DNA from: a virus
Taxonomy: Duplodnaviria; Caudoviricetes
DNA: 64,000 nucleotides
Reading direction: 5' to 3' (one strand)
IMG/VR virus record: IMGVR_UViG_3300025121_000013
The translations under genes and the position numbers were made by a program. Of the stretch, positions 13,973-36,951 are shown piece by piece. The notes under the pieces were generated by a model that ran no database searches, was not told the origin of the DNA, and saw only the letters and a list, made by a program, of their open reading frames with translations. The first letter of the stretch is position 1, and the number at the start of each line of letters is the position of its first letter.

Positions 13973-14470
13973 GTTAGGGCCTGGAGCGGTGATGTGTGCA
14001 ATGCCTTCTTGCACGGTTTGGTGTTCCCGCTCCAGGCCCAACCCTTTTCTTTTTGGGCGGTGGGGTAGACCGATGCAACTCACTCGGATTTGTACCCCAC
14101 CGCCCAGGACCCTTTAGACGTCTAAAGAGCCCTTGGTGAAGGAAAGTTTTATGCGGTCTTATGGCAGAGGCCCATGTAAGTGAGTTTGCCGGCCAGCAAG
14201 GTGGTTCCCCCAAGATCTGTTAACTTGGGGGAACCCTTTCCTTCATTCTTTTAATGGGGGAAGGTTTGGATGTGGACTTACAGACTTTCCCCGTGAGGGT
14301 ATTCGCTGTCGCCTTAACATGAAGTCATCAAGATACAAGCGCCTTGACGCACTTCCCTTCCCCCATTTGCTTCGGCCGTTGGGCTCTTGGCAAGTCCAGC
14401 GGCTAATCCCAGGCTGAGGCCGTAGCCCGGGAAAAACCACACAAATTCTACTTCGCCTAATTCCTTCCGT
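13973..14470 (-). ncRNA. candidate structured non-coding region (tandem long hairpins)
   Basis: At least four 12-14 bp perfect stems and a 16-bp palindrome in about 500 nt with no credible ORF; strand inferred from the upstream gene. Confidence 0.35.
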
Positions 14471-14510
14471 GCCCTGCCGGCCTCCAGAAGGTTTCGGACA
14501 TGATAGAATT

Positions 14511-15404
14511 CTACTTCACGGCTTCCTTGATCTTGTCCTTGGCGAAGTCCTGGATCTCGTCGACGTACTTCGTTCCGCTGTCGACCGATCCATCCGCTTT
14601 GAACTTGAGGGTTTTTTCCTGAGCCGGGAAGTCAACCCAGGACTTGAAGGAAGGGGGGCCGCCGAACAGGCCGGAGAGGAGGGTTTTTTCCTCTCCGTAG
14701 ACCATGGGGCCAAACTCCGTTGTCCCAAGGGGAACCACGATTTCATTCCTGTTCTCAACTACCCACCAGGGCTTGCTGATGCCCTGGCTGATCATCCTCT
14801 TGATCAGCCAGGACATGGTTGTCTCGGGACCCAGGACCATGCCGGCAGAGGTGATTGGCGCAATCACTGCTCCCTCCACCAGATCCCGGTATATCGTCCA
14901 CGGGAAGACGACGCTGTCCTGGCCATTCTCCTTGGCCTGGAAAACGAGGCCCTTGAGGATATGGGGATTCTTCATCCCCTCCTCGTTGGTGATCACCTGC
15001 ATCCCATCGACCGTCACGAACCTGAAACCGAGGAACTCCGGATTCTTCACCTCAGCCCGGAGTTCCTCAACAACGTCCTTGGCGAGCTGGTTTTCGCCGG
15101 AGATCGCCTTCAAGGCCAGATACATGTCCTTGGCCCCGGTGAGGCTGTTTCCCACGGAGCTCGCCACGTCCTTCATGCCTTGGGAGCTGAAGCCCCCGAA
15201 GGCCGCGAAGAGAACGATCATTCCCAGGATCATGACCAGGGTGATCTTCATCGTCCGAAGGACCTTTGTGGTTGTTTTCTTGGCCACATGTTTCAGGTAT
15301 TCCTTCGCCTTCTTGTTCTCCGTACCCTTCTCTTCTCCGACTTGGCATCCATCTTCCATTGTGTCCTCGCTTTCATGTAACATTGTTTTGGGTGAATTAC
15401 ACAA
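14511..15404 (-). CDS. GC-rich membrane-anchored hypothetical protein
   Basis: 297 aa ORF, hydrophobic segment ITLVMILGMIVLFAAFGGF, GGAG RBS. Confidence 0.65.
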   Translation of the reverse strand: MCNSPKTMLHESEDTMEDGCQVGEEKGTENKKAKEYLKHVAKKTTTKVLRTMKITLVMILGMIVLFAAFGGFSSQGMKDVASSVGNSLTGAKDMYLALKAISGENQLAKDVVEELRAEVKNPEFLGFRFVTVDGMQVITNEEGMKNPHILKGLVFQAKENGQDSVVFPWTIYRDLVEGAVIAPITSAGMVLGPETTMSWLIKRMISQGISKPWWVVENRNEIVVPLGTTEFGPMVYGEEKTLLSGLFGGPPSFKSWVDFPAQEKTLKFKADGSVDSGTKYVDEIQDFAKDKIKEAVK

Positions 15405-16976: not shown

Positions 16977-17009
16977 AATAGTTTTCCTCAAATCGTGAAA
17001 GGCTAAAAA

Positions 17010-17588
17010 ATGGGAACTGATAGCACATGTGATCTGGTTATTTTGTATAGTGGTGGTGCGGATAGCAGACTTATGATCGAATTTGCTTTAGGTACAAAAA
17101 AGAAACCATTTGGTGTTTTAATTGATTATGGGCAAAAACATATTGAAGAATTGAAATATGCAGAATCTCATTTATCTGAAGGAAATATTCCATATAAGAT
17201 TTTGAAAGTAAATTTAGGAGAAAATATTTCTAGTGGTTTAACTGGAAATTTAGTTTCAGGAAAATATGGAAATGCTCATCCAATGCACGTTCCTGGAAGA
17301 AATACAATCTTTTTGGGTTTGGCCTTATCCGTTGCAGAAAGTATGAATATTAAGACGGTTTGGATTGGGCCGGACTTTTCAGATTATCTAAATTCTTTTC
17401 CAGATTGTTCTCAAGAATTTATTGGACGAATGAATAATGCATCTCAAATTTCTCCATCTTATCCCATCAATATTGAAGCTCCATTATTAGGAATGACTAA
17501 AGAACTAATTAAATCTCTTCTTTCAAATCAATATCAAATTAAAGAAAATACCTATTATTCTGGTTATGAACCTCCAAAGAAAGGCTAG
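17010..17588 (+). CDS. queC: 7-cyano-7-deazaguanine synthase QueC-like, C-terminally short
   Basis: LYSGGADS PP-loop, DYGQKH, VPGRNTIF, FPDCSQEF; no C-terminal Cys4 Zn motif. Confidence 0.85.
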   Translation: MGTDSTCDLVILYSGGADSRLMIEFALGTKKKPFGVLIDYGQKHIEELKYAESHLSEGNIPYKILKVNLGENISSGLTGNLVSGKYGNAHPMHVPGRNTIFLGLALSVAESMNIKTVWIGPDFSDYLNSFPDCSQEFIGRMNNASQISPSYPINIEAPLLGMTKELIKSLLSNQYQIKENTYYSGYEPPKKG

Positions 17589-17595
17589 TTTAAAA

Positions 17596-18786
17596 ATGTG
17601 GAAAACAGAACTATTATTAAATAAAGAATTAACAGAAGAACTATTTAGAATTATTGTAAATATTAAAAATAGAACTTATACAAATCAAGAAAGTCTTGAA
17701 AGAATTGTTGAGGTTTTTAAAAAAGCTTTTGATTCTTTATTTATTAATGAGCCGGTAAAACCAGAAGAAAAATGTTCTTGCTCTAAAGATGATGGATGTT
17801 CTAATTGCGGAGAAAATTCAAATCTTCAAAAAGAAAAAAATGTAATGTTAAAATCAGGAATTTTTAATGATAAAAAAATGTTTAATGGGTTAGGTTTAAC
17901 ATTAAATGAGATTTTTACTATTTATAATGAAATATTAAATTGTACTAAAAGTTCAGAAGTTCAACATGAAATTGACAAATCATGTAAATTTATTATGAAG
18001 TCAATTACTAATCAATTAAATAAAAAAGATGAAAATAAAGATGGTAACGTTGATCATTTAACAGCTTATATTCCGCCATTTGATTCTAAAATCATTGAAG
18101 AAATTAGAAAAGAAAAAACTGATAAGGAACAAATTAAAAATAGTCAGGAAAAAGAAATTAAAATCTGTCATTGTTCTGAAAATGAAAAGTGTGAAGCATG
18201 TAATAATATATTGAATGATCATGATGAAGAAAAAATTGCTTTTTATATGGCTAAGTCTTTTTTGCCCTATGACGTAGTAAAACAATGTTTAAACTTTCTT
18301 CCAGAAATTGAAGATTTCAAAGAATTTCCTCAGCCTTCCGAATCAGAAAAACACCCTTTTAATGTTTCATGTTTAGAAAGCATGAAAAATATTAACAAGG
18401 AACAAATTAAAAAATCTTCAAATGATATGAAAATTAAAAATAGTCAGGGAAAAGATATCAGTATGTATAATACTGGTCTTTCAGCTAAAAGAGAAAATTG
18501 GGCAGCTTTTGCAAAATTAATTGCAAATCAATTTGAACATGGCGGTGAAAAATATGCATTAATCAATGATATGGAACATACAGATTTTGTTTGTCTTTTA
18601 AGTCCAGGAAAAACTGGAGTCGATTGGATTATTCAAACAATTGTAAAATATTGTGGAAGATTCTTGAATCAAAAAAGAGAAAAAGATCTTTTGAAAATTG
18701 CAACGTATTGTTTTTTAGCTTGGATTAAATGTGGGTTTCATTTGAATCAGGATCATGATGAAGATGTAAAGAAGTCAAATAACTAA
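17596..18786 (+). CDS. protein with internal Cys-rich repeats and C-terminal DUF3310-like domain
   Basis: Two C-x-C-x5-C-x2-C clusters; C-terminal TIVKYCGRF...EKDLLKIATYC resembles the DUF3310 (T7 gp1.7-like) KY-x-x-R...EDL-x-KA-x-x-Y pattern. Confidence 0.45.
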   Translation: MWKTELLLNKELTEELFRIIVNIKNRTYTNQESLERIVEVFKKAFDSLFINEPVKPEEKCSCSKDDGCSNCGENSNLQKEKNVMLKSGIFNDKKMFNGLGLTLNEIFTIYNEILNCTKSSEVQHEIDKSCKFIMKSITNQLNKKDENKDGNVDHLTAYIPPFDSKIIEEIRKEKTDKEQIKNSQEKEIKICHCSENEKCEACNNILNDHDEEKIAFYMAKSFLPYDVVKQCLNFLPEIEDFKEFPQPSESEKHPFNVSCLESMKNINKEQIKKSSNDMKIKNSQGKDISMYNTGLSAKRENWAAFAKLIANQFEHGGEKYALINDMEHTDFVCLLSPGKTGVDWIIQTIVKYCGRFLNQKREKDLLKIATYCFLAWIKCGFHLNQDHDEDVKKSNN

Positions 18787-18809
18787 AAGAAAAGGATTTA
18801 AAAAAAGAA

Positions 18810-19157
18810 ATGAAGTTCAATGTTTTCATGACTGGTTTTTCGGCTAAGGAATCTGGAGAAATTATCCAAAAGTATGGCAAGACTCAAAACATCTCTGCGA
18901 TCAATGATATTATGGGAGATGGCGATTATCATATTGAAATGTCCAAGAATAAGATTGAGAATGCAGATTTTCTTTTGGTAGGAAGTTTGAATAAGATGAT
19001 GTCAGGAATGCAGATTTATTTCGCTCGGACTTTGAACAAGCCAGTCGTTTCGGTTGATCCCGACGATTCCGAAGTTTGTAATCTTTGGTTTTTGGATAAC
19101 GTGACAAAGACCGTTGTTTCTGTCGGGGATTTCTTCAAGTATTTGAGTGAGTTTTAA
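18810..19157 (+). CDS. nucleoside 2-deoxyribosyltransferase-like fold protein
   Basis: IENADFLLV...SGMQIYFARTLNKPVVSV resembles the NDT C-terminus, with Gln at the usual Glu position. Confidence 0.35.
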   Translation: MKFNVFMTGFSAKESGEIIQKYGKTQNISAINDIMGDGDYHIEMSKNKIENADFLLVGSLNKMMSGMQIYFARTLNKPVVSVDPDDSEVCNLWFLDNVTKTVVSVGDFFKYLSEF

Positions 19158-19211
19158 TTTTTGGCTTGAATTCTCTGTTGGGGATTTCTTCAAGTATTTG
19201 AGCGAGTTTTA
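19119..19211 (+). repeat. 38-bp direct duplication (2 mismatches) of the 3' end of the upstream gene
   Basis: 19119-19156 vs 19174-19211: TCTGTYGGGGATTTCTTCAAGTATTTGAGYGAGTTTTA. Confidence 0.85.
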
Positions 19212-19214
19212 GAT

Positions 19215-19829
19215 ATGATATCCGGTGAGATTTCTAAGGAATCTTTTGATAAGAAAGTGAGTGCGAAAATGAATAAGGGAAAGCAAGTGGATTCTTTTCC
19301 GGGAACGGGAATTAAGATTGGATCGGGAATGGAAACTAATGAAGCGAAGGAAACGTCTGCGGGAATTAATATGGGCGAGATAGCAAAAGATAGAGATATG
19401 AATAAACTGAACCTTGGAGATGGAAGGTTTGGCTTGGAAGATAGAGATGTGGCAACAAAGCTTCTCGATAAAAATTTTAGTCCCATGATAATTCGAAAAT
19501 ATACACGAATTGGGTTTCCACTTTTTGTTAGCTTAATTTGTGATGAGAATTTGGATGATTTGGATAATGTAGTTCATGACTGTATAGATTTTTGCAGAGA
19601 TAATAATATCTTAAGAAACAATATTCAATCCCTCAGAAATTTTACTGGAATTTTATCTGATACAATTAATACGCATTATGATAAAAAGAAACGTGGCTGT
19701 GTTGAGTCAATATCCATAATTTTATATGCTGACAAGCTCCTGCTGAGTTCACTTCAAGGCGACGCGATGAATTTTTTAGCTTGTCGAATGGAACTTTATG
19801 AATCTTTGAATTTGATGGCTAAGATTTAA
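19215..19829 (+). CDS. hypothetical protein
   Basis: 204 aa ORF in the queC operon; no recognised motif. Confidence 0.55.
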   Translation: MISGEISKESFDKKVSAKMNKGKQVDSFPGTGIKIGSGMETNEAKETSAGINMGEIAKDRDMNKLNLGDGRFGLEDRDVATKLLDKNFSPMIIRKYTRIGFPLFVSLICDENLDDLDNVVHDCIDFCRDNNILRNNIQSLRNFTGILSDTINTHYDKKKRGCVESISIILYADKLLLSSLQGDAMNFLACRMELYESLNLMAKI

Positions 19830-19836
19830 GAATTAA

Positions 19837-19900
19837 TTTCATATCGACACCCATTATGAATAAGAACAAAATATAAATCATAATGGGTGTCGATATGAAA
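19837..19900 (+). promoter_or_regulatory. 23-bp perfect inverted repeat with the GAACAAA motif in its loop, abutting the RBS of the HNH gene
   Basis: TTTCATATCGACACCCATTATGA (19837-19859) / TCATAATGGGTGTCGATATGAAA (19878-19900); AGGAG at 19901; ATG at 19913. Confidence 0.7.
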
Positions 19901-19912
19901 AGGAGCTTTAAA

Positions 19913-20875
19913 ATGAGTGAAGAAAATTTTCCTTTATGTGATTGTGGGTGTGGAAAAGAAGTTACTAAAAAAACTAATAAATATTTATGGGGTCATAATA
20001 AGAATGTGGTTACTGATGAAACTCGTCAAAAATTAAGAGATGCTAATTTAGGGATTACTTTAGAAATGCGACATGGTGAAGAAAAAGCAAAAGAAATAAA
20101 GAGAAAAATTGGATTAAAGAGCAAAGAAAGAATTCCTTATCAAAAAGGAAAAACTTGGGAAGAATTATATAGTAAAGAAGGGTCAGAAAAATTAAGAGAA
20201 AGATTAAAAGAAACCCATACAAATAATCCAATATTTAAAGATCGCAAGGGGCCGAGGAATCCATATTATAAAGGAGCTAAGGATAGTCTTTATAAACATT
20301 GGAGTCCAAAAATAACAGAAGATAAAAATAGAGAAAACAAAGATAAGAAAATAGAAGTTAAATGTACATATTGTGGAAAGTGGTATGTTCCAACACAAAT
20401 TGAATTAGATAATAGAATTGGAGCAGTTAGAAAAAATAATGGAATAGGTTGTAATTTTTATTGCTCTGGTGAATGCAAAAAATTGTGTCCAGATCATTAT
20501 CAAGTGTTGTGGCCAAAAAATCACAAACCGTATAATATTAAGAAAGATGATACGCCCAATCTAACAAATGAACACGGACATAATTTCTCAGTCGAAGTCA
20601 ATCCCCTCATCCGAAAACTCGTCTTTGAAAGAGACAATTGGGAATGTCAAAGATGCAATGTCCAAGAAAGTCTTCAATGTCATCATATTGACCCAATCGC
20701 TCTTAATCCCGGCTTCGCAAACGACATAGATTCTTGTATCACACTTTGCATAGAATGTCATCAATCAGTCCATAAAACTATCGAAGGCTGTGGATACAAC
20801 GATCTCAAAAACGAAAAACAAAATCGAATTCAAGGCTGTCCTGAAAAGCAAGAGGTAACAAATGGCGAAATATAA
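19913..20875 (+). mobile_element. free-standing HNH homing endonuclease with NUMOD3-like DNA-binding motif
   Basis: CDCGCG, ETRQKLRDANLG, and C-terminal CQRC...LQCHHIDP...CITLCIECH. Confidence 0.8.
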
Positions 20876-21248
20876 AACTATAAATAACCTTCTTCAAAAT
20901 AATAATGATAAAATGAACGCAGTCATTTTTTCTGGATTTGAAAATGGGATTCCTCAAGTTGTGGTTAGACCGATTTTATTTTGGGGAATTTTCGATATTG
21001 AAGATGATGAAGATAAAAATTTTTTAGAACAAGAAATAGTGGGAATGATATATTATAGTGGGAAAATCGGACCTTGTACAGATTCAAAGATTTTTATGAC
21101 TTATGTTTCTTCTGAAGATGAATTAGAACTTTTGATCAGTTCTTTAAATGAAGAAGATTTTAATGAAATGATAAATCCTGGAGAAAAGGAAGAAGTGAAA
21201 GAGGAAGGTAAAATTATCAATATAGATTTCGGAAAGAAGAAAACATGA
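20862..21248 (+). CDS. hypothetical acidic protein
   Basis: 128 aa ORF with GAGG RBS. Confidence 0.55.
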   Translation: MAKYKTINNLLQNNNDKMNAVIFSGFENGIPQVVVRPILFWGIFDIEDDEDKNFLEQEIVGMIYYSGKIGPCTDSKIFMTYVSSEDELELLISSLNEEDFNEMINPGEKEEVKEEGKIINIDFGKKKT

Positions 21249-21727
21249 ATGTGATTATGGCTCCACATCCAGATGATGAGATTATAGGTTGTTTTGAGAT
21301 TTTAAAAAAAGGAAATTGTGTAGTTAATTTTACAACAAAATTAAATAAAGAGAGAGCGGAAGAATGTTTGAATTTGAGAAATCATTTTGATGTTAAATTT
21401 ATATATTTTCAATATTCTGTTCCTCCAGCTTTTTTATCAATAAAAAATACTTTTTATTTTCCACATCCGATTTATGAAACTCATCCGGAACATAGATTAT
21501 TGGGACAACATGGTGAAAGGCTTTTAAGAAATGGTTACAATGTAATTTTTTATTCGACAATAATGAATGCGCCTTTTATATTTGAAACGCCTTTTTCAGA
21601 AGAAAAGAAAAAGGTTTTAAATTTATTGTATCCAAGTCAAAAATCTTTATGGGAATATGATTATAAATATTTCTTGTTTTCAGGGTATGACAAATGGCTT
21701 ATTGAATTAGGAAATGAAAATGGCTAG
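21245..21727 (+). CDS. PIG-L/LmbE family deacetylase-like
   Basis: APHPDDEIIGC and ETHPEHR motifs. Confidence 0.75.
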   Translation: MNVIMAPHPDDEIIGCFEILKKGNCVVNFTTKLNKERAEECLNLRNHFDVKFIYFQYSVPPAFLSIKNTFYFPHPIYETHPEHRLLGQHGERLLRNGYNVIFYSTIMNAPFIFETPFSEEKKKVLNLLYPSQKSLWEYDYKYFLFSGYDKWLIELGNENG

Positions 21728-22673
21728 ATTGATTTTTGTACCACAACTTCCTATAAAGATGAGATATAGCGAATGGTGGTTTACAGAGTTTCCAAAGAAT
21801 GTTCAAGATGCTTTTAGCGAAGTCATTGTTTTAGGAAAAAATAATATTCCTCAAAATGCTGATAATTCGGGATTATTTTCTAATACAGAAATGGCTATTA
21901 AATTTGAGCTATCTCAAGTTGAAGAATATCTTGATTTAAAACTAGAAAAAAATGATGTTTTATTTCATGCTGATTTAAGTTTTCCAGGAGTTTTTCATTC
22001 AGTTTTATTTCATAAAAAACCAAAGTTAAGTTTATGCTTTTGTCATGGCTCATCATTAAATAAATATGATTATTTTCAAAAAGTAAGAAAAGAAAAATAT
22101 TTAGTTGAACAGGGCATGGCAAATAATTATGATTATATTTTAGTTGGAAGCGTTTATCATGCCCTTAAATTAAAAGGCATAAAAAATATAATGATCACAG
22201 GACTTCCACAACCATATGATATTTTTAATGATGAAATATTCAATTCAAATAAAATAATTGACATAACTTCTGTGTCTAGATCTTGTATACAAAAATCTAC
22301 AAAAAAAATAGAGAGAGAAATAGAAAAAGAATTTAACACAAAAATTATTAGAAAATCATTTGACTCATGGAAAGATTATTATCAACATTTAGCAAATTCT
22401 AAAATTCTTTTAATTTCCTCAAAAGAAGATACATTTAATTATTCAATTTTAGATGCATATTTAATGGGTTGTATCCCTTTGGCTCCAAATAGATTAGCTT
22501 TTCCCGAATTATTACCAAGAGAATATTTATATAATAATATTGAAGAATTAAAAGATAAAATTAAAAAAATTTTTAGAGGAGAATTAAAACCGTTGAAAGA
22601 ATTAAATAATCAATATAAGGTTGATCACTTTTATGAAATCTTTGAGAGCGTTATAAATGAGACTTTAAATTAA
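21714..22673 (+). CDS. GT4-type glycosyltransferase, C-terminus resembling GTDC1/QTMAN
   Basis: EDTFNYSILDAYLMGCIPLAPNRLAFPELLPREYLY. Confidence 0.7.
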   Translation: MKMARLIFVPQLPIKMRYSEWWFTEFPKNVQDAFSEVIVLGKNNIPQNADNSGLFSNTEMAIKFELSQVEEYLDLKLEKNDVLFHADLSFPGVFHSVLFHKKPKLSLCFCHGSSLNKYDYFQKVRKEKYLVEQGMANNYDYILVGSVYHALKLKGIKNIMITGLPQPYDIFNDEIFNSNKIIDITSVSRSCIQKSTKKIEREIEKEFNTKIIRKSFDSWKDYYQHLANSKILLISSKEDTFNYSILDAYLMGCIPLAPNRLAFPELLPREYLYNNIEELKDKIKKIFRGELKPLKELNNQYKVDHFYEIFESVINETLN

Positions 22674-22694
22674 CAAAACTTTAAAACATAGTAT

Positions 22695-22743
22695 GACCTC
22701 AAGACAGGGATAAGGGAATTTCAAAAGTCCCTGTCTTGAGGTC
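22695..22743. terminator. 16-bp inverted repeat between convergent genes
   Basis: GACCTCAAGACAGGGA / TCCCTGTCTTGAGGTC. Confidence 0.7.
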
Positions 22744-22755
22744 TTCTGAATATCA

Positions 22756-22884
22756 TTAATTCCAGATGAAAAGTATTCCTACTAACCAAAAAAATGGAAT
22801 GAATTCACTCGGATCTTTTTGAAACATCAAAACTGCTGCGGCACTAATTGCAATTGTCCCAACCCCTTGACAGGCTGGTTTCAT
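22756..22884 (-). CDS. small membrane protein (42 aa, not in ORF track)
   Basis: MKPACQGVGTIAISAAAVLMFQKDPSEFIPFFWLVGILFIWN; AAGGA RBS. Confidence 0.45.
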   Translation of the reverse strand: MKPACQGVGTIAISAAAVLMFQKDPSEFIPFFWLVGILFIWN

Positions 22885-22941
22885 GTCAAATCCTTTCTTA
22901 GAGAGAATAACCAATTCAATTCTTTATTATTTTTTGAATAA

Positions 22942-23433
22942 TTAATTTTCTAAAGTATCGATTTTAATACCAACTAAATTTAGATTTTCATTAAGGATAT
23001 GCAGGAATTTTTCCTTTCTTGCATTTCCCACGAATATTCCCATCCCCAAAGTTATCAACAATGGAGAGCCGTTTGTCAGACCAACCACTTTTTTGGAAAG
23101 TTCATCCATTGACACCTTATCAGATGCCTTTAGCCATAGAAGAGACGTCTGGATCAAAGGCAGTATGGATTCTTTTGAGCCACGATAAGAAATTATATCT
23201 TTACACCCGCAAACTCTGGTGCTCAATTTAATTTCAGTAATTTCAGAAATATTTCCCCCAAACATCAATTCCCATCTCACCAAATTTTTTATTGCATCCA
23301 GAACAAAAAATTCGGTTTTGACCGCAGGAATATTTTCCTTGTCTCTTGAGTCATTGAATATTCTGAAATTGGTTTTTGTTATTATTCCTTCCATTAGGTT
23401 TTGACCTTGTTCTGTTAGAGCCCCTCGGTCCAT
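22942..23433 (-). CDS. hypothetical protein
   Basis: 163 aa ORF with GGGG RBS. Confidence 0.6.
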   Translation of the reverse strand: MDRGALTEQGQNLMEGIITKTNFRIFNDSRDKENIPAVKTEFFVLDAIKNLVRWELMFGGNISEITEIKLSTRVCGCKDIISYRGSKESILPLIQTSLLWLKASDKVSMDELSKKVVGLTNGSPLLITLGMGIFVGNARKEKFLHILNENLNLVGIKIDTLEN

Positions 23434-24526: not shown

Positions 24527-24535
24527 AATTTTGGA

Positions 24536-25080
24536 TGGATGGGCCCCAAAGGCGGAATGACGGCGCCGGTTGGGGCCCATCCAGAATTACTAGGCAAAGG
24601 CCTGCGAGAGCAAAGGGGTTTCTCTCAGCTGCAGGCCTTTGCCTTTCTGCGGTGAAGCGATCTAAGTCTTCCAATCCACGAGAGCCCAGCGTCCCAGGTC
24701 TCTTGGTTTGGGATTGGATAGCCTTAGACCATCTTTCGCTTTTTCATGGCACGCCCTTTCAAAGTTGGGGTTGGTTTTCACTCCAGGTGCTCCGGACTTC
24801 TGGCGGTCAGTGAAAAGCTATCCGTGTTCTAAACAGGAAAAACCTCAACACGAGGTATTTCATCCTGTCTCCTTTCGATGATGGTTCATTCCAAGGTTTC
24901 CCAGAATTAAGTTTCCCTTGTCTAAATGAAACGTGGCTGGAGATCACAGGGCGTTGCCCAAGCGTAACGGATAAGAGGAAAGTCTAGATCTTCTTAACTA
25001 ACAGATCCGAAAATTCCTTAGTTCCGTTTCTAGTGACCCGCAGTTTTCCCTCATGCCCTTGAGGACCACAAATTAACGAT
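24536..25080 (-). ncRNA. candidate structured non-coding region downstream of rpsA
   Basis: Stacked stems 24536-24583 (13 bp), 24592-24644 (14 bp) and 24656-24740 (compound); no credible ORF. Confidence 0.3.
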
Positions 25081-25098
25081 TATCAATATCCCCCATCT

Positions 25099-26754
25099 CT
25101 ACTTCGTTTCGCTTCTCTTCATGACAAAACGGGGCTTGTTGAACCCCGGCTTTCCCTTGGAAGTCGGCCCTCCTCCCTCCATCTTGTTGATGGAGAAGGC
25201 CATCTTCCGTTCCTCCTTGTTGATGGAGACCACTTTGGCCTCCACGGAAGATCCGACCGGGAACGAGCCGGCGAGGTTCTTCGTCAGGTCCTTGGGGATC
25301 TCGGAAACGTGGACCAGGCCTCGCAGTCCGCCCTCAAGGGAGAGGAACACGCCGTAGTCGGCGGTCCCGGTCACCGTGCCGCAGATCTTCGTTCCGACGG
25401 GGAACCTTTCCCCGACGGTATCCCAGGGATCGGGCTCCAGTTGCTTGACGCCCAGGGCAATCCGCCCTGAAGAGGGATCGATCCGGATGATCTTGGCCCG
25501 GATCGTTTCCCCGATGTGATAAAGCTCAGCGGGCGTCTTGATGTGCCCGGTCCAGGAGATGTCCGAGATGTGGACCATGCCGTCGATTCCCTCATCGATG
25601 CCGAGGAAGATCCCGAAGTCGGTCATGGCCTTGATCTTGGACTCGATGGTGGTGCCCACCGGGTACTTCTCGCTGACGCTCTCGATGGGGTCCTTCTTGA
25701 TGGCCTTCATGGACAGGGCCAGCTTTCTCTGGGCCGGGTCGATCTCGAGGACGATGGCCTCGATCTCCTGGCCGATCTCCACGACGCTTGCAGGGTTCTT
25801 CACCCTCTGGTGGCTGATTTCCGTGGTGTAAATCAGGCCACGGATCATGGGGGCCACCTCGACGAATATCCCGTATTCGGTCGTCGAGGTCACCAGGGCC
25901 CGGATCTTCGTGCCCTTCTTGAACTTCTCGGCGGCCTCGATCCAGGGATCCGGAAGGAGCCGCTTGATGCTCAGCTCGATCTTCTCTTCCTCGGCGTTGA
26001 CGTTGACGACCTTCACCTCGATGTTCTGGCCCACGGTGTACTCCTGGGTCAGATCCGTGATCTTTCCCCAGGAGACCTCCGAGATGTGGACGAGGCCATC
26101 TACACCTCCGAGGTCAAGGAACAGGCCGAACTTGGTGATGGCCTTGATGTCCCCCTTGACGACGGAGTCTGGAATGATCCGGGCAAAGGCTTCGGCCATG
26201 TTGGCCTCCCTCTCCTTCTCCAGGATCGCCCTCCTGGACACGATGACATTCCTCGTGTCCTCGTTGAAGGTGATGATCTTGAAGTTCATCGCCTTTCCCA
26301 GCACCTCTTCGGCCGAAACGGGGTGAAGGTCCACCTGGGAGCCGGGAAGGAAGGCGGGAACGCCGATGTCCACGGAGAAGCCGCCCTTGACCTGGTTTTT
26401 TACCAGGCCGAGGATATCGAGACCTCCCACGTAGGTTTCCTTGAGGCTTTCCCAGGTCACTCCCATGTTCTTTCCTATGGAGATCTGGACGGGCCGTCCA
26501 TCCTTCTCGAGGCCATCGAGAATGACTTCGATGAAGTCACCCTCCTTGACGGCCAGGCTTCCATCCTTGGTCGGAAGATCTCCGACCGGGATCAAGCCCA
26601 TGGTCATGCATCCCACGTCGACCATGGCGTTGATCTCGTTGATCTGGGTGATCACGCCGTCGACGACCGTGCCGATTTTGAAGATCTTCGGCTCGAAAAT
26701 CGACATGACGTTGTCTTGGGTGTATTCTGAATCTCGAACAGACGTCTTTTCCAT
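25099..26754 (-). CDS. rpsA: 30S ribosomal protein S1
   Basis: Six S1/OB repeats (VKGGFSVDIGVPAFLPGSQVD, FGLFLDLGGVDGLVHISEVSW, FGIFLGIDEGIDGMVHISDISW); AGGAG RBS; GC-rich (about 57% in a sampled line). Confidence 0.95.
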   Translation of the reverse strand: MEKTSVRDSEYTQDNVMSIFEPKIFKIGTVVDGVITQINEINAMVDVGCMTMGLIPVGDLPTKDGSLAVKEGDFIEVILDGLEKDGRPVQISIGKNMGVTWESLKETYVGGLDILGLVKNQVKGGFSVDIGVPAFLPGSQVDLHPVSAEEVLGKAMNFKIITFNEDTRNVIVSRRAILEKEREANMAEAFARIIPDSVVKGDIKAITKFGLFLDLGGVDGLVHISEVSWGKITDLTQEYTVGQNIEVKVVNVNAEEEKIELSIKRLLPDPWIEAAEKFKKGTKIRALVTSTTEYGIFVEVAPMIRGLIYTTEISHQRVKNPASVVEIGQEIEAIVLEIDPAQRKLALSMKAIKKDPIESVSEKYPVGTTIESKIKAMTDFGIFLGIDEGIDGMVHISDISWTGHIKTPAELYHIGETIRAKIIRIDPSSGRIALGVKQLEPDPWDTVGERFPVGTKICGTVTGTADYGVFLSLEGGLRGLVHVSEIPKDLTKNLAGSFPVGSSVEAKVVSINKEERKMAFSINKMEGGGPTSKGKPGFNKPRFVMKRSETK

Positions 26755-26819
26755 GTAACATTCTCCTTGTTGTGAGGTGGTATGGTTTGATTCTGAGACG
26801 ATTTTCTGGAACTTGGGGA

Positions 26820-27392
26820 CTAGATCTCGAACCCGGAGGCCCGGATTTCCTTCTTGAGGGCCAGGGGGATCCTCACCTTGGACAACTCAATCCCGGAACC
26901 CAGACAGGTGGGACAATCCCTCGAGCTCTTGATCTTCCTCCCGAGGACCGGCTCGGTGCATTTTCCTGCCCCCTTGCACTTCGGGCAGGGCACATCATCT
27001 GCCCGGAAGCGATTCTTCCGGTGCACATACACGCCGGTGCCGTTGCACCGGGAACATGTTTCCACTTCGCCGGCCCGGCCGCCGCAGACGGCGCAGACGT
27101 CTGTCCGGATCCCCCGGCCTCCGCAGGATGGGCAGGTGATTTCCTCCTCCCCTATCTGGAAGATGAACTTCTGACCCGCCCCCTTGCAGGCGGGGCAGAT
27201 GGGGGATGAGGGTGCCACCGACCAGGATTCTCCTGCCTCGATGGCGGCCCGGATCTTTTCGTTCTTGGCCGCCATGATGGCCTTGAACTCCTCCATGGTC
27301 TTGGTTTTCGAAATCAGGGACTCCAGACCCCGAACCTCATTGATGTCCACGTACTGGATTTCAACCTCGGCTGCATCATCCATCGGTAACAT
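26820..27392 (-). CDS. DnaJ-type zinc-finger protein without a J-domain
   Basis: Six CxxCxGxG-type repeats; start chosen after the GAAGGG RBS. Confidence 0.75.
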   Translation of the reverse strand: MLPMDDAAEVEIQYVDINEVRGLESLISKTKTMEEFKAIMAAKNEKIRAAIEAGESWSVAPSSPICPACKGAGQKFIFQIGEEEITCPSCGGRGIRTDVCAVCGGRAGEVETCSRCNGTGVYVHRKNRFRADDVPCPKCKGAGKCTEPVLGRKIKSSRDCPTCLGSGIELSKVRIPLALKKEIRASGFEI

Positions 27393-27786
27393 CCCTTCGT
27401 GTGGGTTTCGGCGGAAGCTCCGCCATGATGACCTTGACCATTTCAAGGTCCTTTTCTTTTTTTATTGCCATGAGCATGAGAGCGGAGCCCACCAAAATTC
27501 CTCTCTCAGAACATATGACTCCTTGTTTCTGTATCGAATTTAAGATTTTGGAAACTTCATCGTCAAGTCTCCAAAATTCTTTTATCGGAGTTCCAGGGGT
27601 TTGACTCATGTCATTTAATTTCTGAGCAATGGTTGATATTCTTTTCCACCCATGTCGAATTCTTTTAATCATTTCAGAAGCCTCTGTTTCAAGATTTCTT
27701 TGAACATTTATTTCTTTCTTGCCCAATTTTTTGTATTCTTTTCCAGAACCTTTTCCGGCTTTTTTGGATTTCTTTTGCTCAGCCAT
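27376..27786 (-). CDS. hypothetical basic protein
   Basis: AGGAG RBS before ATG at 27786. Confidence 0.55.
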   Translation of the reverse strand: MAEQKKSKKAGKGSGKEYKKLGKKEINVQRNLETEASEMIKRIRHGWKRISTIAQKLNDMSQTPGTPIKEFWRLDDEVSKILNSIQKQGVICSERGILVGSALMLMAIKKEKDLEMVKVIMAELPPKPTRRDVTDG

Positions 27787-31327: not shown

Positions 31328-32038
31328 GTGATAATGGACAATATAAAAGTAATTGAGTCTTTTATAACATGGCAGGGAGAGGGGCCTGACATTGGAAAGA
31401 GAATGCTCCTTTTAAGATTTAAAACCTGTGATAGAGTCGAAAATAAAAATCCTTGTTCATGGTGTGATACAATAATTAAAATGAGATGCTCCATTGAGCA
31501 GGAGGTTTCTCTCCAAACGATCCAAGAAACTTTAGATAAAAACAAAGCTGGTTTGATGATAACCGGAGGGGAACCTACATTTGGAGAAAACTTAAAAAAT
31601 ACAACCAGACTTTTAAATTTATATTATAACGTTGCTAACATTGAAACAAATGGTTTTGATCTTTTAGGCCTTTTTAAAATTATCTCCAATATTGATAAAA
31701 ATATAAAAATAATTTGGTCTCCAAAAATTTTCAGCAATAAAGATTATGTCGATTTTCAAGTCAAAGTCTCAGAATTAAATTCATATAAAAATGATGTTTA
31801 TTTAAAATTTGTAATAGACAATAAAAATTTTCCAGAAGATAATTTAAGGGTAGAAAAATGTTTACAATTTATCTTAGATAATCCAAAAATTAAATTTGAT
31901 ATAGATAAAGTTTATTTAATGCCAGAAGGAAAAACAAGGGAAGACTTAATTAAAAATTCAGAGATTTGTTTTGACATGTGTGAGAAGTGGAATTGTAGTT
32001 TTTCTTCAAGGGATCAAATAATCTATGGTTTCGTTTAA
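31328..32038 (+). CDS. queE: 7-carboxy-7-deazaguanine synthase QueE (radical SAM)
   Basis: ESFITWQGEG, C-x8-C-x2-C, ITGGEP, IETNG, WSPK, YLMPEG. Confidence 0.85.
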   Translation: MIMDNIKVIESFITWQGEGPDIGKRMLLLRFKTCDRVENKNPCSWCDTIIKMRCSIEQEVSLQTIQETLDKNKAGLMITGGEPTFGENLKNTTRLLNLYYNVANIETNGFDLLGLFKIISNIDKNIKIIWSPKIFSNKDYVDFQVKVSELNSYKNDVYLKFVIDNKNFPEDNLRVEKCLQFILDNPKIKFDIDKVYLMPEGKTREDLIKNSEICFDMCEKWNCSFSSRDQIIYGFV

Positions 32039-34019: not shown

Positions 34020-34667
34020 ATGGAAAAGACAAAGAAGATTTATGTAAATGAATTGATCGTTAGCGATAAATGGATTCTTAATAATAATGAAATAAAAACT
34101 TTGGTCAATCCAAAAACTATTTTAAAAAGTGTTGAATTTGATAAAATTGAAAGACGATCTATTTTTTGTGAAGCGATGTTTTCTTCGGAAAATGCACAAA
34201 CTCAATTTATTAGGGTCGGTGAAAATATTTTTCTAAATGGTGGGTATATCACAGCTAAAGTCGCAACAAAAAATCTAACAGAGTGGTTTATGGCAAGTCA
34301 AAATCATTTTAAAAAAAATAAGTTATTTGAATATGAATATTATAAATTCTTTGAATTAATTTCTTCTATTCCAGAAAATAAATCTTTATTTTATAGAACA
34401 AGTTATCCCGACTATTTATTCATTAAAGAAAATATGAATTCATCTTTTTTTCCGTTAACGCTTACATTTTTAGTAGAACTTTTTTCTATAAATGAAAAGA
34501 TAAGAACTAATATAGAAATTAATAAATTTGAATTGGAACTTTTAACTCAAGACTCTCCTTTTAATTTTGATCAAAATAAAATATTTCTAAGAGATAAATT
34601 TTCTTCTTATGATCCCCGTATGTATAATTTCTTTTGGATGCTTCAAAAATTGGAAATTAATCAATGA
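34020..34667 (+). CDS. hypothetical protein
   Basis: 215 aa ORF coupled between thyA and the Qng1-like gene. Confidence 0.6.
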   Translation: MEKTKKIYVNELIVSDKWILNNNEIKTLVNPKTILKSVEFDKIERRSIFCEAMFSSENAQTQFIRVGENIFLNGGYITAKVATKNLTEWFMASQNHFKKNKLFEYEYYKFFELISSIPENKSLFYRTSYPDYLFIKENMNSSFFPLTLTFLVELFSINEKIRTNIEINKFELELLTQDSPFNFDQNKIFLRDKFSSYDPRMYNFFWMLQKLEINQ

Positions 34668-35515
34668 GAAGTTTTTCAACAATTCAAAATATAATCAATT
34701 TTTCAGAAAATTTCTTAAATTCTAAAAATGATTTTATTAGAATTAATGATGAAGAATATTTTAGTTTATTAGTCTCAAAGATAAAAAACTTTAATTCTAA
34801 TTATAAAAAGATTGAGATAAATCCAAAAATCATTAAACAATTGATTTTAATGACATCCATTAATTTTTGTTATTGGTATGGAAATTCATATCATAGAATT
34901 AATAATTCTTCTTCAAGTAAATTAGGAAATATTATTTATGAAGCCATAGAAAATTCTAATGGATTAAATCATAACGGTATTATAAGAGAAATAATTTCTA
35001 AAATGGTAATGGAAAGATTTCCTTTATTAGATGAGAGAATTAGAATTTTAAAAAGTATTTCTGATTGGGATATAAATTCTATAATTAGAAATGTGACATC
35101 AACTAAAAGTTTGGAAGAAGTTTTTTCTATTTTTCTTTGTACCATTCCACATTTTGGAAATGATTTTTTTCTTAAAAAGGCATGTTTATTTTTTATCGAA
35201 TTGAATAGAATTTTTGGATTATATGAAGATGAAATAAATATGTTGATAGTTCCGGCAGATTATCAAGTCCCAAAAATCCTCCATTATTTTAATTGTTTTC
35301 AATATTCAGAATATTTAAGAAATAAGATAGATAGCGATCTTTTGATTTTACCAAATTCTAAAGAAGAAATTTCAATAAGAACAGCTACAGTTTTTTCTTG
35401 TGAACAATTGAAAAAATTAACTAATAAAAGTATCTCAGATATTGACGAATTTTTATGGGGAAATAGAGATCTTTGTAAAAATCCATTTCATTTAACAATT
35501 ACCACAGATTATTAA
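34664..35515 (+). CDS. queuosine salvage hydrolase Qng1-like (DUF2419/C9orf64 family)
   Basis: SINFCYW, PLLDER, FLKKA, PADYQVP (catalytic Asp), EEISIR, IDEFLW, PFHLTITTDY occur in the family order. Confidence 0.8.
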   Translation: MRSFSTIQNIINFSENFLNSKNDFIRINDEEYFSLLVSKIKNFNSNYKKIEINPKIIKQLILMTSINFCYWYGNSYHRINNSSSSKLGNIIYEAIENSNGLNHNGIIREIISKMVMERFPLLDERIRILKSISDWDINSIIRNVTSTKSLEEVFSIFLCTIPHFGNDFFLKKACLFFIELNRIFGLYEDEINMLIVPADYQVPKILHYFNCFQYSEYLRNKIDSDLLILPNSKEEISIRTATVFSCEQLKKLTNKSISDIDEFLWGNRDLCKNPFHLTITTDY

Positions 35516-35562: not shown

Positions 35563-36951
35563 ATGTCAATGAGTCAAAAGAAAAGTGGATTCATTTTAGC
35601 TGGAGGGGAAACTTTAAATTCCATTTGTGATAGATATTTAAAAAGTGAAGGCGAGGATTATATTACAAGAGAAGGAATTAATTCTATGTTAAATAAATCT
35701 ATCTCTGGAGTTTTACATTCTTTCGGTGAGGCTTTTGAAAAGAGAAGAAATATAAACACTCATATTAAATCTCATAGAAAAATTTTTCAGTCTATGATAG
35801 ATACAAAAATTTTAGATGGAATTAATATATTTTGTGACTCTGGAGGATTTCAAGCTTCCATAGGAAGGCTCGAAAAAGAATCCACTGATGATTTAATTCA
35901 GGCATATCATAAATTTTTAAGAGAAGAACATAATCTTATTGATAGGGCTTTTGTATTAGATTTGCCCCCAGGCCCAGGGTGCAAAATATTTCATTCTTTT
36001 GAAGAGATATATGAAAAGAATTTAGAAACATATAAAATGGCTTCTGAATTCCCTGATGAAATTAGATCTAAAATGATTTATATTCATCATTTTAGAACAC
36101 CAAAATTATGGAATATATTTAATAGAATTCTTTTTGAAAATGATTTGTTTGAAAAGTTTTCACATTTTGCAACAGGGGGAATTGTCGCAAATACAAAAGG
36201 AGATAGTAATATACCTTGCATAATTTATGTTTTGCCTTTAATTCCCCTTTTAATACAATGTAAAAAAAGAAATATTAAAAAATTAGATTTTCATATTTTA
36301 GGAGGCGCTACATTTAGGGATTTATTTTTTTATGAGATATTAGAAAAACATATAAAAGAAGTTCATGATATTCAAGTGAATTTTACGTTTGATTCTTCCA
36401 GTCTATTTAAAGGGTTGATGATAGGAAGATTTATTGTAATAATTGAAGAAGATGGAACTTTTAGAAAATTAGATTTGAGAAGTTCTTTATTAGATTTGAG
36501 ATTTAAGGGAAAAGAAACTCATAGAACAACATATTTAAAACATTTAAATAAGATGGCTCAGAAATATAATTTTAAACCATTAAATTTAACTGAGCCATAT
36601 TCTAAAGAAACAGGAACTTTTTTTCCAATATTTTCAGTTTATACAATGTTATTTATGCTTGATCAGTTTTCTGAATGTCAAACGATGTTTTCAAAATCCG
36701 CTACAAATTTTTATGAATTATATAAAATGGATAAGATTGAAGAGTTAAATTTTGAAACCAATGAAATTACAAAAAAAATAAACAAAGGAAATATTACAAG
36801 AAAACAAACTGCAAAAAACTTTGGGCTTATAAATTCATTAAAAATAATTACCGAACTAAATTATGATTATTGTGAATATATTGTTAACAAATGTTTATCG
36901 AAAGATGAGTTCATCAATTTATCCGATAGAAAGAAAATTCTAACGTTTTAA
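35563..36951 (+). CDS. TGT-fold base-exchange transglycosylase (DpdA/TGT-like)
   Basis: CDSGGFQ, VLDLPP, FHILGG, FDSSS (three TGT aspartates present); no CxCxxC Zn motif. Confidence 0.7.
   Translation: MSMSQKKSGFILAGGETLNSICDRYLKSEGEDYITREGINSMLNKSISGVLHSFGEAFEKRRNINTHIKSHRKIFQSMIDTKILDGINIFCDSGGFQASIGRLEKESTDDLIQAYHKFLREEHNLIDRAFVLDLPPGPGCKIFHSFEEIYEKNLETYKMASEFPDEIRSKMIYIHHFRTPKLWNIFNRILFENDLFEKFSHFATGGIVANTKGDSNIPCIIYVLPLIPLLIQCKKRNIKKLDFHILGGATFRDLFFYEILEKHIKEVHDIQVNFTFDSSSLFKGLMIGRFIVIIEEDGTFRKLDLRSSLLDLRFKGKETHRTTYLKHLNKMAQKYNFKPLNLTEPYSKETGTFFPIFSVYTMLFMLDQFSECQTMFSKSATNFYELYKMDKIEELNFETNEITKKINKGNITRKQTAKNFGLINSLKIITELNYDYCEYIVNKCLSKDEFINLSDRKKILTF

Follow-up and report, generated by a model that had tools for sequence, protein, structure and literature searches.

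Several described systems provide a context for the locus studied here. In phages, 7-deazaguanines are placed in DNA by the transglycosylases DpdA1-4, which are encoded with FolE, QueD, QueE and QueC (Hutinet 2019, PMC6884629; Cui 2023, PMC10516641), and the eight derivatives known so far carry no sugar. In tRNA, QTMAN/GTDC1 (Pfam QTMAN_N PF12038 plus Glycos_transf_1) is the tRNA-queuosine alpha-mannosyltransferase and appears to be the only glycosyltransferase acting on a 7-deazaguanine nucleoside in a nucleic acid. In MshA/MshB, BshA/BshB and PIG-A/PIG-L, a GT4 GlcNAc transferase is followed by an LmbE-type de-N-acetylase. HuiG of the huimycin pathway of Kutzneria albida, as in dapiramicin-type clusters, uses UDP-GlcNAc to glycosylate a nitrogen of a preQ0-derived 7-deazapurine (bioRxiv 10.64898/2026.04.15.718813). 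Here we examined a 64-kb stretch (hereafter the window) of a giant groundwater phage genome of roughly 270 kb; the stretch is found only in Logan contigs of groundwater and soil metagenomes from 2015-17. A sequence-only reading had proposed that a PIG-L-type deacetylase and a GT4 glycosyltransferase, co-oriented with queC, decorate a 7-deazaguanine with an (amino)sugar. Our analysis confirms the gene pair and supports this interpretation, although the attachment of a sugar to a deazaguanine remains an inference. The features bearing on this question are:

17010..17588 (+), QueC-like PP-loop enzyme, truncated before the C-terminal Cys cluster, first gene of the run
19215..19829 (+), unknown 204-aa protein whose conserved domain partners QueC
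19883..20875 (+), HNH endonuclease, probably a mobile insertion and not part of the pathway
21245..21727 (+), minimal LmbE/PIG-L-fold metal-dependent hydrolase (160 aa), the predicted sugar de-N-acetylase
21714..22673 (+), GT-B glycosyltransferase (319 aa, or 317 aa from the ATG at 21720) with a QTMAN-like donor half
31328..32038 (+), QueE (7-carboxy-7-deazaguanine synthase), directly after the UDG-PolB gene
34664..35515 (+), Qng1/Q_salvage-like hydrolase, a possible accessory gene
35563..36951 (+), divergent DpdA/TGT-like transglycosylase (462 aa), the predicted base-exchange enzyme

The LmbE and GT genes overlap by 14 nt, or by 8 nt if the GT starts at the ATG at 21720, which is used by public gene calls and follows an AGGA. 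They end a run of eight + strand ORFs that begins with the QueC-like gene (Pfam QueC 9e-30, positions 3-186 of 210; TIGR00364 at 4.4e-29, below its cut-off), and gaps in the run are -23 to +57 nt. The 204-aa protein is present in 52 of 78 related IMG/VR loci in addition to the window's own copy, and is fused to the C-terminus of QueC in one locus (L136) and directly follows QueC in another (L139). The HNH assignment rests on Pfam HNH at 1.4e-5 and PHROG HNH families. Both genes of the pair are conserved at 42-58% identity in hundreds of metagenomic proteins, indicating that they are real genes. A blastn search of 17000-23000 against GenBank phages found nothing, and a promoter and terminator scan of 16.5-24.2 kb gave counts no higher than in shuffles.

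Pfam alone is weak for both proteins, and their assignment is instead settled by folds and profiles. The 160-aa protein scores 14.8 bits against the PIG-L cut-off of 28.2 (E 0.041), with only residues 4-21 matching; this is a shortened version of the fold. However, its structural model (pLDDT 95.6) has its seven best PDB matches all in the LmbE superfamily (BC1534 at Z 13.7, Dbv21, TT1542, Dac, GalB, LnmX, and MshB at Z 9.9), with the next match at 6.8. In addition, the family profile hits diacetylchitobiose deacetylase at 1.2e-4 across both metal motifs, PHPDDE at residues 7-12 and HPEH at residues 80-83, and H8, D10, D11, H80 and H83 are invariant in 47 homologues. The GT scores 14.2 bits against the Glycos_transf_1 cut-off of 26.4 (E 0.03), and 31 of 47 relatives match only weakly (best 2.5e-5); the family is divergent. 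Its model (pLDDT 92.9) is a GT-B fold closest to retaining GT4 enzymes at Z 20-24, aligning over 289-307 residues to sucrose-phosphate synthase (Z 23.9), an alpha-1,2-glucosyltransferase (Z 23.4) and BshA (Z 22.4). The donor-site residues R189, K194 (R-x4-K) and E265 are invariant and E238 is present in at least 90% of 47 sequences, although the spacing of the acidic pair is E-x8-D, one residue longer than canonical. Searching the PDB with the GT sequence found nothing, and its profile found only two weak generic GT1 fragments; no QTMAN structure appeared in any PDB search that we ran. A predicted complex of the GT with LmbE scored 0.00, which counts neither for nor against binding.

The sequence-only reading also noted a resemblance of the GT C-terminus to GTDC1/QTMAN, and this likeness is real but partial. 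Profile-profile comparison (hhalign) of the C-terminal, donor-side half with 19 bacterial QTMAN_N proteins gives a probability of 99.2% and E 1.4e-19 over 86 columns, whereas a generic GT1 control from the same phages gives 0.6%. The family's motif P-E-x-x-P-x-E-Y-L-Y, scanned over 185,579 species genomes, returned about 27 GT ORFs, and 7 of 7 tested carry QTMAN_N at 1e-36 to 1e-58. Consistently, a QTMAN-family HMM hits only this GT family among about 2,300 ORFs of the window and related loci, and the Atlas structural neighbour is a QTMAN family cluster at TM 0.78. The generic GT1 gene nearest in the window (11629-12654) belongs to a different family. Notably, none of 47 family members hits PF12038 at E up to 1, and hhalign does not align the N-terminal halves with confidence, indicating that the GT is a relative of the QTMAN family and not a member. 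Because the acceptor of GT-B enzymes is usually bound by the N-terminal half, this kinship does not by itself prove a deazaguanine acceptor. Around the bacterial QTMAN-like genes, our phage-derived HMMs found no que, dpd or LmbE genes within the 8-kb loci.

The pairing of the two genes is strongly conserved. The LmbE gene lies upstream of the GT on the same strand in 72 of 77 IMG/VR loci, and as four of the five misses have the GT at a contig edge, this corresponds to 72 of 73 testable loci; in 33 loci the gap is -34 to +1 nt. The pair recurs in Burkholderia phage BCSR5 and Xanthomonas phage X1 (LmbE HMM 1e-27) and in four of five distant representatives. In contrast, ACP17, PA5oct, Phosso and Synechococcus phage BUCT-ZZ01 show no LmbE relative in the loci examined, so the deacetylation step is not universal. 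A Campylobacter Firehammervirus LmbE-like protein is a homologue (3e-11), but sits among sugar genes without this GT and was not counted as support. It is also possible that LmbE does not act on a sugar but hydrolyses an amide on the base itself, for example ADG to CDG or a formyl- or acyl-preQ1, with a separate role for the GT. In favor of this possibility, LmbE-superfamily enzymes hydrolyse varied substrates (PMC4101496), the hydratase GalB is among the fold matches, and deazaguanine chemistry is rich in amides. However, we consider it unlikely, as LmbE is tied to the GT, often overlapping it, rather than to QueC, and the GTs of the two LmbE-bearing lineages are closer to each other (HMM 1e-45 to 1e-50) than to the LmbE-less ones (1e-15 to 1e-25). 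Moreover, the GT4 plus LmbE pairs known to us all work as transfer followed by de-N-acetylation.

A survey of genomic context links the GT to que and dpd genes in many independent phage lineages. GT relatives lie within 5 kb of QueE, and five of the six also of FolE, in six cultured lineages. In BCSR5/X1/BUDD the order is FolE, PP-loop enzyme, LmbE, unknown, GT, DpdA, unknown, QueE; in ACP17 a DSGG-motif protein that we take for DpdA precedes the GT; in PA5oct a DpdA-like protein precedes the GT; Phosso and BUCT-ZZ01 are the others. We found no homology between the window's 128-aa ORF (20862-21248), or the QueC-like protein, and the ORFs flanking the GT in BCSR5 and X1. In about 30 loci of a sister subclade the order is LmbE, GT, DpdA (phrog_887 down to 2.8e-51). 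Of six distant representatives sampled at E 1e-30 to 1e-45, five had usable contigs; four of these carry FolE and QueE, with QueC or PTPS as well in three, and the fifth carries DpdA with the radical SAM, methyltransferase and SDR set. Importantly, all 78 IMG/VR loci are one PolB-type clade, so their synteny counts as roughly one observation, and independence comes only from the cultured and distant lineages.

Within the window itself, the link rests on these relatives, as the pair is 13 kb from the downstream DpdA-like gene and 3.7 kb from QueC, with an HNH gene in between. The window's QueE matches NCBIfam QueE models at 9.4e-14, and the HMM of its cluster hits the annotated QueE of six cultured phages at 1e-22 to 1e-33. 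No FolE or QueD turned up among the window proteins scanned, which covered roughly 12.7-39.3 kb of the 64 kb, and in related whole contigs QueC is in 13 of 16, QueD in 11 of 16 and FolE in 1 of 16. The DpdA-like protein is very divergent, matching phrog_887 ('queuine tRNA-ribosyltransferase') at only 1.9e-6 (a family also matched by 8 of 14 relatives), with no Pfam TGT hit and no PDB hit by profile (the c10 profile also found nothing). It shares the DSGGFQ motif with the BCSR5 and PA5oct DpdA-like proteins at 1e-4 and is present in 15 of 16 long related contigs. The Qng1-like gene (Pfam Q_salvage 1.1e-18), which the sequence-only reading had drawn into its model, is not needed for the argument.

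Together, these observations lead us to favor, with moderate confidence, a model in which the two overlapping genes are a tailoring module of a 7-deazaguanine nucleic-acid modification pathway. In this model, QueE, the QueC-like enzyme and host enzymes supply a 7-deazaguanine base, which the divergent DpdA-like transglycosylase exchanges for guanine in phage DNA. The QTMAN-related GT-B enzyme would then transfer a sugar from a nucleotide sugar onto the deazaguanine, either before or after insertion, and given the LmbE partner this sugar is most likely an N-acetyl-hexosamine. Finally, the LmbE-fold zinc hydrolase would remove the acetyl group and leave an amino sugar, which is the order in which MshA/MshB, BshA/BshB and PIG-A/PIG-L work. 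Consistent with this, BshA and BC1534, which are among the best structural analogues, are themselves a GlcNAc-transfer and deacetylation pair, the latter probably being the bacillithiol deacetylase BshB. The product would be a bulky and probably positively charged purine that shields DNA from host nucleases. The sugar, the acceptor atom, the order of steps, DNA rather than tRNA as the target and the protective role are all inferred, as there is no chemical evidence from any of these phages. In addition, known 7-deazaguanines in DNA (preQ0, ADG, CDG, preQ1, DG) have no hydroxyl, so an N-glycoside, an acyl-glycoside or a still unknown side chain is needed.

An alternative is that the pair works on tRNA, with the DpdA-like enzyme acting as a tRNA-guanine transglycosylase and the GT glycosylating queuosine or a precursor at position 34 of phage or host tRNAs, as QTMAN does, to tune translation in a phage that carries many translation genes. 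The nearest named relatives of the GT are tRNA-queuosine mannosyltransferase family proteins, the PHROG matching the transglycosylase is annotated as queuine tRNA-ribosyltransferase, and the window encodes tRNA-Asn(GUU), a queuosine-type substrate, together with ribosomal protein S1, S21 and the Qng1 salvage hydrolase. However, Cui et al. 2023 report a DpdA in every phage or virus known to carry a 7-deazaguanine in its DNA and call it a signature of such DNA modification (PMC10516641), and DNA of PA5oct, which has the DpdA-like protein next to the GT, resists restriction enzymes in a pattern its authors read as a modified G, still unidentified (PMC12191111). Furthermore, no QueA, QueG or QueH for making the queuosine diol came up in the annotated loci, and the QTMAN_N domain is absent. 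We therefore regard a tRNA target as unlikely, though it cannot be dismissed given the divergence of the window's DpdA-like protein.

It is similarly doubtful that the genes make a small soluble glycoside, either a huimycin-like deazapurine glycoside or a pterin glycoside made by FolE, PTPS, SDR and a glucosyltransferase like the tetrahydrobiopterin one. FolE, PTPS and a short-chain dehydrogenase do lie beside the GT in the sister subclade, tetrahydrobiopterin glucosyltransferase is among the good fold matches (Z 21.1), and HuiG shows that GTs can act on free deazapurines. However, this fold match is no better than to other GT4s, and a DpdA-type base-exchange enzyme is adjacent to the GT in several lineages. 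Notably, a complete 312-kb relative (G004) keeps the GT, LmbE and the DpdA-like gene, but has no Pfam hit to FolE, PTPS or QueC.

If the model is correct, these phages and cultured relatives such as X1, BCSR5, PA5oct and ACP17 would replace guanine in their DNA with a sugar-bearing 7-deazaguanine, carrying an amino sugar where the LmbE partner is present. This would be the first glycosylated purine known in any DNA, made by a relative of the enzyme that glycosylates queuosine in animal tRNA, a possibility that we raise only tentatively. To our knowledge, the sugar-bearing DNA bases described so far are all pyrimidines (glucosyl- and arabinosyl-hmC, and base J), the eight known 7-deazaguanines in DNA are all small, and we found no paper that describes such a modification. 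A new chemical class of this kind would matter for restriction and CRISPR evasion, for type IV and glycosylase-type defences that sense modified G, for sequencing artefacts and for enzyme tools. Interestingly, the GT may also explain why DpdA3 plus DpdL, a QueD paralogue, of ACP17 gave no product in E. coli, as the authors themselves suggested that further enzymes may be needed (PMC10516641). The GT also points to a second, viral branch related to the QTMAN family, raising the question of what the bacterial QTMAN_N proteins do.

Like QTMAN, the phage enzyme has the GT-B fold, a C-terminal half that is specifically alike, including the signature P-E-L-F/L-P-x-E-Y-L-Y, and an inferred tie to a 7-deazaguanine in a nucleic acid, but it is encoded with DpdA-type genes and an LmbE deacetylase rather than with tRNA queuosine genes. 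As in the phage 7-deazaguanine systems, a transglycosylase-like gene and genes for at least part of CDG/preQ0 synthesis lie in the replication block, and ACP17, which carries a GT relative, is one of the phages discussed there; however, neither 'glycosyl' nor 'deacetylase' occurs in the main text of Cui 2023, and the window's transglycosylase-like protein is far more divergent than the described subfamilies. The MshA/MshB, BshA/BshB and PIG-A/PIG-L systems have the same two folds as a gene pair, but their acceptors are inositol phosphate, malate or phosphatidylinositol, and the phage LmbE, with its metal site intact, is a 160-aa minimal version against about 220-300 aa. HuiG, which acts on a free base in secondary metabolism with no DpdA and no deacetylase, provides a chemical precedent for a sugar on a hydroxyl-free deazaguanine. 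Finally, the T4 alpha- and beta-glucosyltransferases are phage GT-B enzymes that put a sugar on a modified DNA base after replication as an anti-restriction measure, which raises the possibility that the GT glycosylates a hydroxymethyl-pyrimidine and that its nearness to que genes only reflects a shared nucleotide-metabolism module. Indeed, the pair sits in the replication and nucleotide-metabolism block, and a thymidylate-synthase-like gene scoring below the family cut-offs lies at 33230-34018. This reading is very unlikely, as no hydroxymethylase is shown and the QTMAN-specific signature and the DpdA adjacency recur in lineages with different replication modules, both PolB and PolA types. 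The T4 acceptor is 5-hydroxymethylcytosine, there is no shared motif, and T4 alpha-glucosyltransferase shares the fold only at Z 16.0, far below the Z 20-24 of the GT4 enzymes.

The stretch is about 27% G+C with GC-rich islands (55-60% G+C) at 13974-15380 and 24535-27446, the second of which holds the ribosomal protein S1 gene, and it belongs to a phage of roughly 265-274 kb recovered from groundwater and soil metagenomes. In this sequence, eight ORFs follow one another on the + strand from 17010 to 22673, with gaps of -23 to +57 nt, in the following order:

17010-17588 (+), QueC-like protein of 192 aa
(+), 406-aa unknown protein
(+), 115-aa unknown protein
19215-19829 (+), 204-aa unknown protein
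19883-20875 (+), HNH endonuclease
(+), 128-aa unknown protein
21245-21727 (+), 160-aa protein, a predicted LmbE-fold hydrolase
21714-22673 (+), 319-aa protein, a predicted GT-B glycosyltransferase (GT)

The last two ORFs overlap by 14 nt, or by 8 nt if the ATG at 21720 is used, which follows an AGGA and is the start in public gene calls. The observation in the sequence-only reading of an overlapping deacetylase and GT4 pair co-oriented with queC is confirmed. Interestingly, the QueC-like protein ends at Pfam position 186 of 210 and has no C-terminal Cys cluster. Twelve of the 13 QueC hits in related whole contigs end at about the same model position (185-199 of 210), while one, in contig G009, is full length, and the protein may not be a canonical preQ0 synthase. 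The 204-aa protein belongs to a family found in 52 of the 78 related loci identified below. This family is a QueC partner domain; it is fused to the C-terminus of a QueC-like protein (391 aa) in locus L136 and directly follows QueC in locus L139. In addition, an HNH endonuclease sits inside this run of genes, and in a distant relative (L134:888-2651) an Endonuclease_7 domain is fused in front of the GT to give a 587-aa protein; homing endonucleases seem to target this module repeatedly.

The 160-aa protein is poorly recognized by Pfam, which sees only its first 20 residues (PIG-L, E 0.041), although it has more than 450 homologues at about 50-58% identity. In 47 of these homologues, P7, H8, D10, D11, E12, H80 and H83 are invariant and form the (A/P)HPDD and HxxH motifs, which in MshB-type enzymes likely bind zinc and supply the general base (PMC4101496). 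The family profile aligns both motifs to diacetylchitobiose deacetylase (E 1.2e-4). The AlphaFold model (pLDDT 95.6) matches BC1534, Dbv21, TT1542, Dac, GalB, LnmX and MshB at Z 13.7 to 9.9, with the next match at 6.8. Together, these data indicate that the protein is a shortened LmbE-fold hydrolase with a complete metal site. Notably, a homologous LmbE-like gene (3e-11) is present in Campylobacter phage F379 (L089:6989-7561), beside an NAD-dependent epimerase/dehydratase gene, a polysaccharide deacetylase gene and ThyX, but no relative of the GT was found there. This phage probably shares its genus (Firehammervirus) with CP220, whose DNA carries dADG (PMC10516641).

Pfam is again weak for the 319-aa protein (Glycos_transf_1, E 0.03), but its model (pLDDT 92.9) is a full GT-B fold. 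The best matches are retaining GT4 enzymes, including sucrose-phosphate synthase (Z 23.9), BshA (Z 22.4), PglA (Z 21.3) and tetrahydrobiopterin glucosyltransferase (Z 21.1), while T4 alpha-glucosyltransferase matches at only Z 16.0. R189 and K194 (an R-x4-K pair), E238 and E265 are conserved and lie at positions that would bind the diphosphate and ribose of the donor in GT4 enzymes, and the enzyme looks active.

The sequence-only reading also proposed that the C-terminus of the GT resembles GTDC1/QTMAN, the queuosine-tRNA mannosyltransferase, and we tested this in four ways. First, Pfam QTMAN_N (PF12038) matches none of 47 family members. Second, a bacterial 'tRNA-queuosine alpha-mannosyltransferase' cluster, with PF12038 in 100% of members, is among the nearest structures in the ESM Atlas (TM 0.78). 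Third, one genome of each of 185,579 prokaryote species was scanned for the C-terminal motif of the family, P-E-[LIF]-[LF]-P-x-E-Y-L-Y, which returned 41 loci where we estimate about 17 by chance. About 27 of these encode GT proteins, mostly 310-440 aa, that share the block HEFFG..V.EAV.AGC.PLLP.RLSYPELFP.EYLY. All 7 that were tested carry QTMAN_N at 1e-36 to 1e-58, while the one generic GT1 in the set does not. Bacterial QTMAN_N proteins with the PELFPxEYLY motif (loci L093-L132) are concentrated in Desulfobulbia and Thermodesulfobacteriota MAGs, and our HMMs detected no que genes within 8 kb of them. Fourth, profile-profile comparison of the phage family with 19 of these proteins gives a probability of 99.2% (E 1.4e-19) over 86 C-terminal columns, whereas the same comparison with a generic GT1 family from the same phages gives 0.6%. 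In addition, an HMM of the bacterial QTMAN-like proteins, searched against all of the roughly 2,300 ORFs of the window and related loci, hits 77 of 77 members of this GT family (39-72 bits) and the six cultured-phage relatives, and hits no other glycosyltransferase. The N-terminal halves do not align with confidence. The phage enzyme is thus a specific relative of QTMAN in its donor-side half, with a different N-terminal half, and is not a member of the family as Pfam defines it.

To examine the genomic context within the phage's own clade, IMG/VR was scanned, which gave 78 loci whose ORFs we called and clustered. The LmbE gene is upstream of the GT on the same strand in 72 of 77 loci. Four of the five exceptions have the GT at a contig edge and the fifth is a 27%-identity outlier, while in 33 loci the two genes overlap or abut. 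Among the sources (the 78 loci plus the window), other gene families occur within 10 kb as follows: UDG-PolB in 62, QueE in 56, the unknown 19215-19829 family in 52, QueC in 42, a second radical SAM protein of 342 aa in 31, FolE in 27, QueD in 20 and an SDR in 17. The loci fall into two groups. The window-like huge phages carry a 462-aa DpdA-like gene about 9 kb downstream of the GT in relatives and 13 kb downstream in this window, where the pair is separated from it. In a sister group of about 30 loci, LmbE, GT and a 345-aa protein are adjacent, and all 12 members of that 345-aa family that were tested match phrog_887 'queuine tRNA-ribosyltransferase', down to 2.8e-51. The 462-aa protein of the window matches the same PHROG only at 1.9e-6, but shares the DSGGFQ motif with the DpdA-like proteins of BCSR5 and PA5oct. 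In loci of the sister group (e.g. L025, L033, L048 and L082) and at L134:3422-5834, the conserved 342-aa radical SAM protein (CxxxCxxC near the N-terminus, CPGC near the C-terminus) lies beside LmbE, GT and DpdA, often with a methyltransferase and a short-chain dehydrogenase, hinting at further tailoring of the base or the sugar. Among 16 long related contigs, a DpdA-like gene is found in 15, QueC in 13, QueD in 11 and FolE in 1. Interestingly, one complete relative (IMG/VR record G004, 312,420 bp with direct terminal repeats, reached through locus L014) keeps GT, LmbE, QueE and the DpdA-like gene but has no Pfam hit to FolE, QueD or QueC, which suggests reliance on host precursors or salvage. 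A thymidylate-synthase-like protein at 33230-34018 of the window matches the methanogen-type TS model best (7.3e-32) but scores below all curated cut-offs.

The synteny of one clade is close to a single observation, and independent lineages are therefore the most informative. The GT profile hits one gene in each of six cultured groups, at E 1e-50 to 7e-15, and each of those genes lies inside a deazaguanine gene set. In Xanthomonas phage X1 the order is FolE, PP-loop enzyme, LmbE, 143-aa ORF, GT, 'queuine tRNA-ribosyltransferase', unknown and QueE, and Burkholderia phage BCSR5 has the same order. In Acidovorax phage ACP17, the order is QueD-like, FolE, unknown, a 424-aa DSGG-motif protein, then the GT, then QueE, and the ACP17 GT is also the best viral structural match (TM 0.81). 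In PA5oct, the end of a 540-aa DSGGFQ protein overlaps the GT start, with QueE 2 kb on. Sinorhizobium phage Phosso carries GT, FolE and QueE, and Synechococcus phage BUCT-ZZ01 carries QueE, QueD, FolE, two unknowns and then the GT. The LmbE profile hits X1 and BCSR5 at 1e-27, and their GTs are also the closest to the window's family, which suggests an LmbE-coupled subfamily. An exhaustive profile search finds 2,556 cluster representatives at E up to 1e-3, of which we sampled six at E 1e-30 to 1e-45, five with usable contigs. Four of the five carry FolE and QueE next to the GT, with QueC or PTPS as well in three, while the fifth carries the radical SAM, methyltransferase and SDR set plus a DpdA. 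LmbE is directly upstream in four of the five, and one of them is a PolA-type phage.

We found no paper that describes a glycosyltransferase or a deacetylase in phage deazaguanine DNA pathways. Interestingly, the DpdA and DpdL of ACP17 are reported to give no product in E. coli, and it was suggested that other enzymes may be required (PMC10516641). In the case of PA5oct, the resistance of its DNA to restriction enzymes has been read by the authors as a modified G, still unidentified (PMC12191111).

Two independent lines of evidence point to the GT acting on a 7-deazaguanine; that the target is DNA rather than tRNA is inferred. The first is kinship with QTMAN, to our knowledge the only known nucleic-acid deazaguanine glycosyltransferase, and the second is repeated embedding next to DpdA and the que genes in unrelated phages. 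The proposal of the sequence-only reading that the phage may decorate a deazaguanine with an (amino)sugar is thus supported, though unproven chemically. The likeness to QTMAN is on the donor side and cannot alone define the acceptor, and known DNA deazaguanines lack a hydroxyl. Importantly, chemical precedents exist, as QTMAN puts mannose from GDP-mannose on the diol of queuosine in tRNA, and HuiG uses UDP-GlcNAc to glycosylate a nitrogen of a preQ0-derived deazapurine. The eight derivatives listed for 7-deazaguanine DNA modification systems are sugar-free (PMC10516641). The near-obligatory LmbE partner, with its intact metal site, matches the three GT4 plus LmbE pairs known to us, MshA/B, BshA/B and PIG-A/L, which makes an N-acetyl-hexosamine followed by de-N-acetylation the most likely chemistry.
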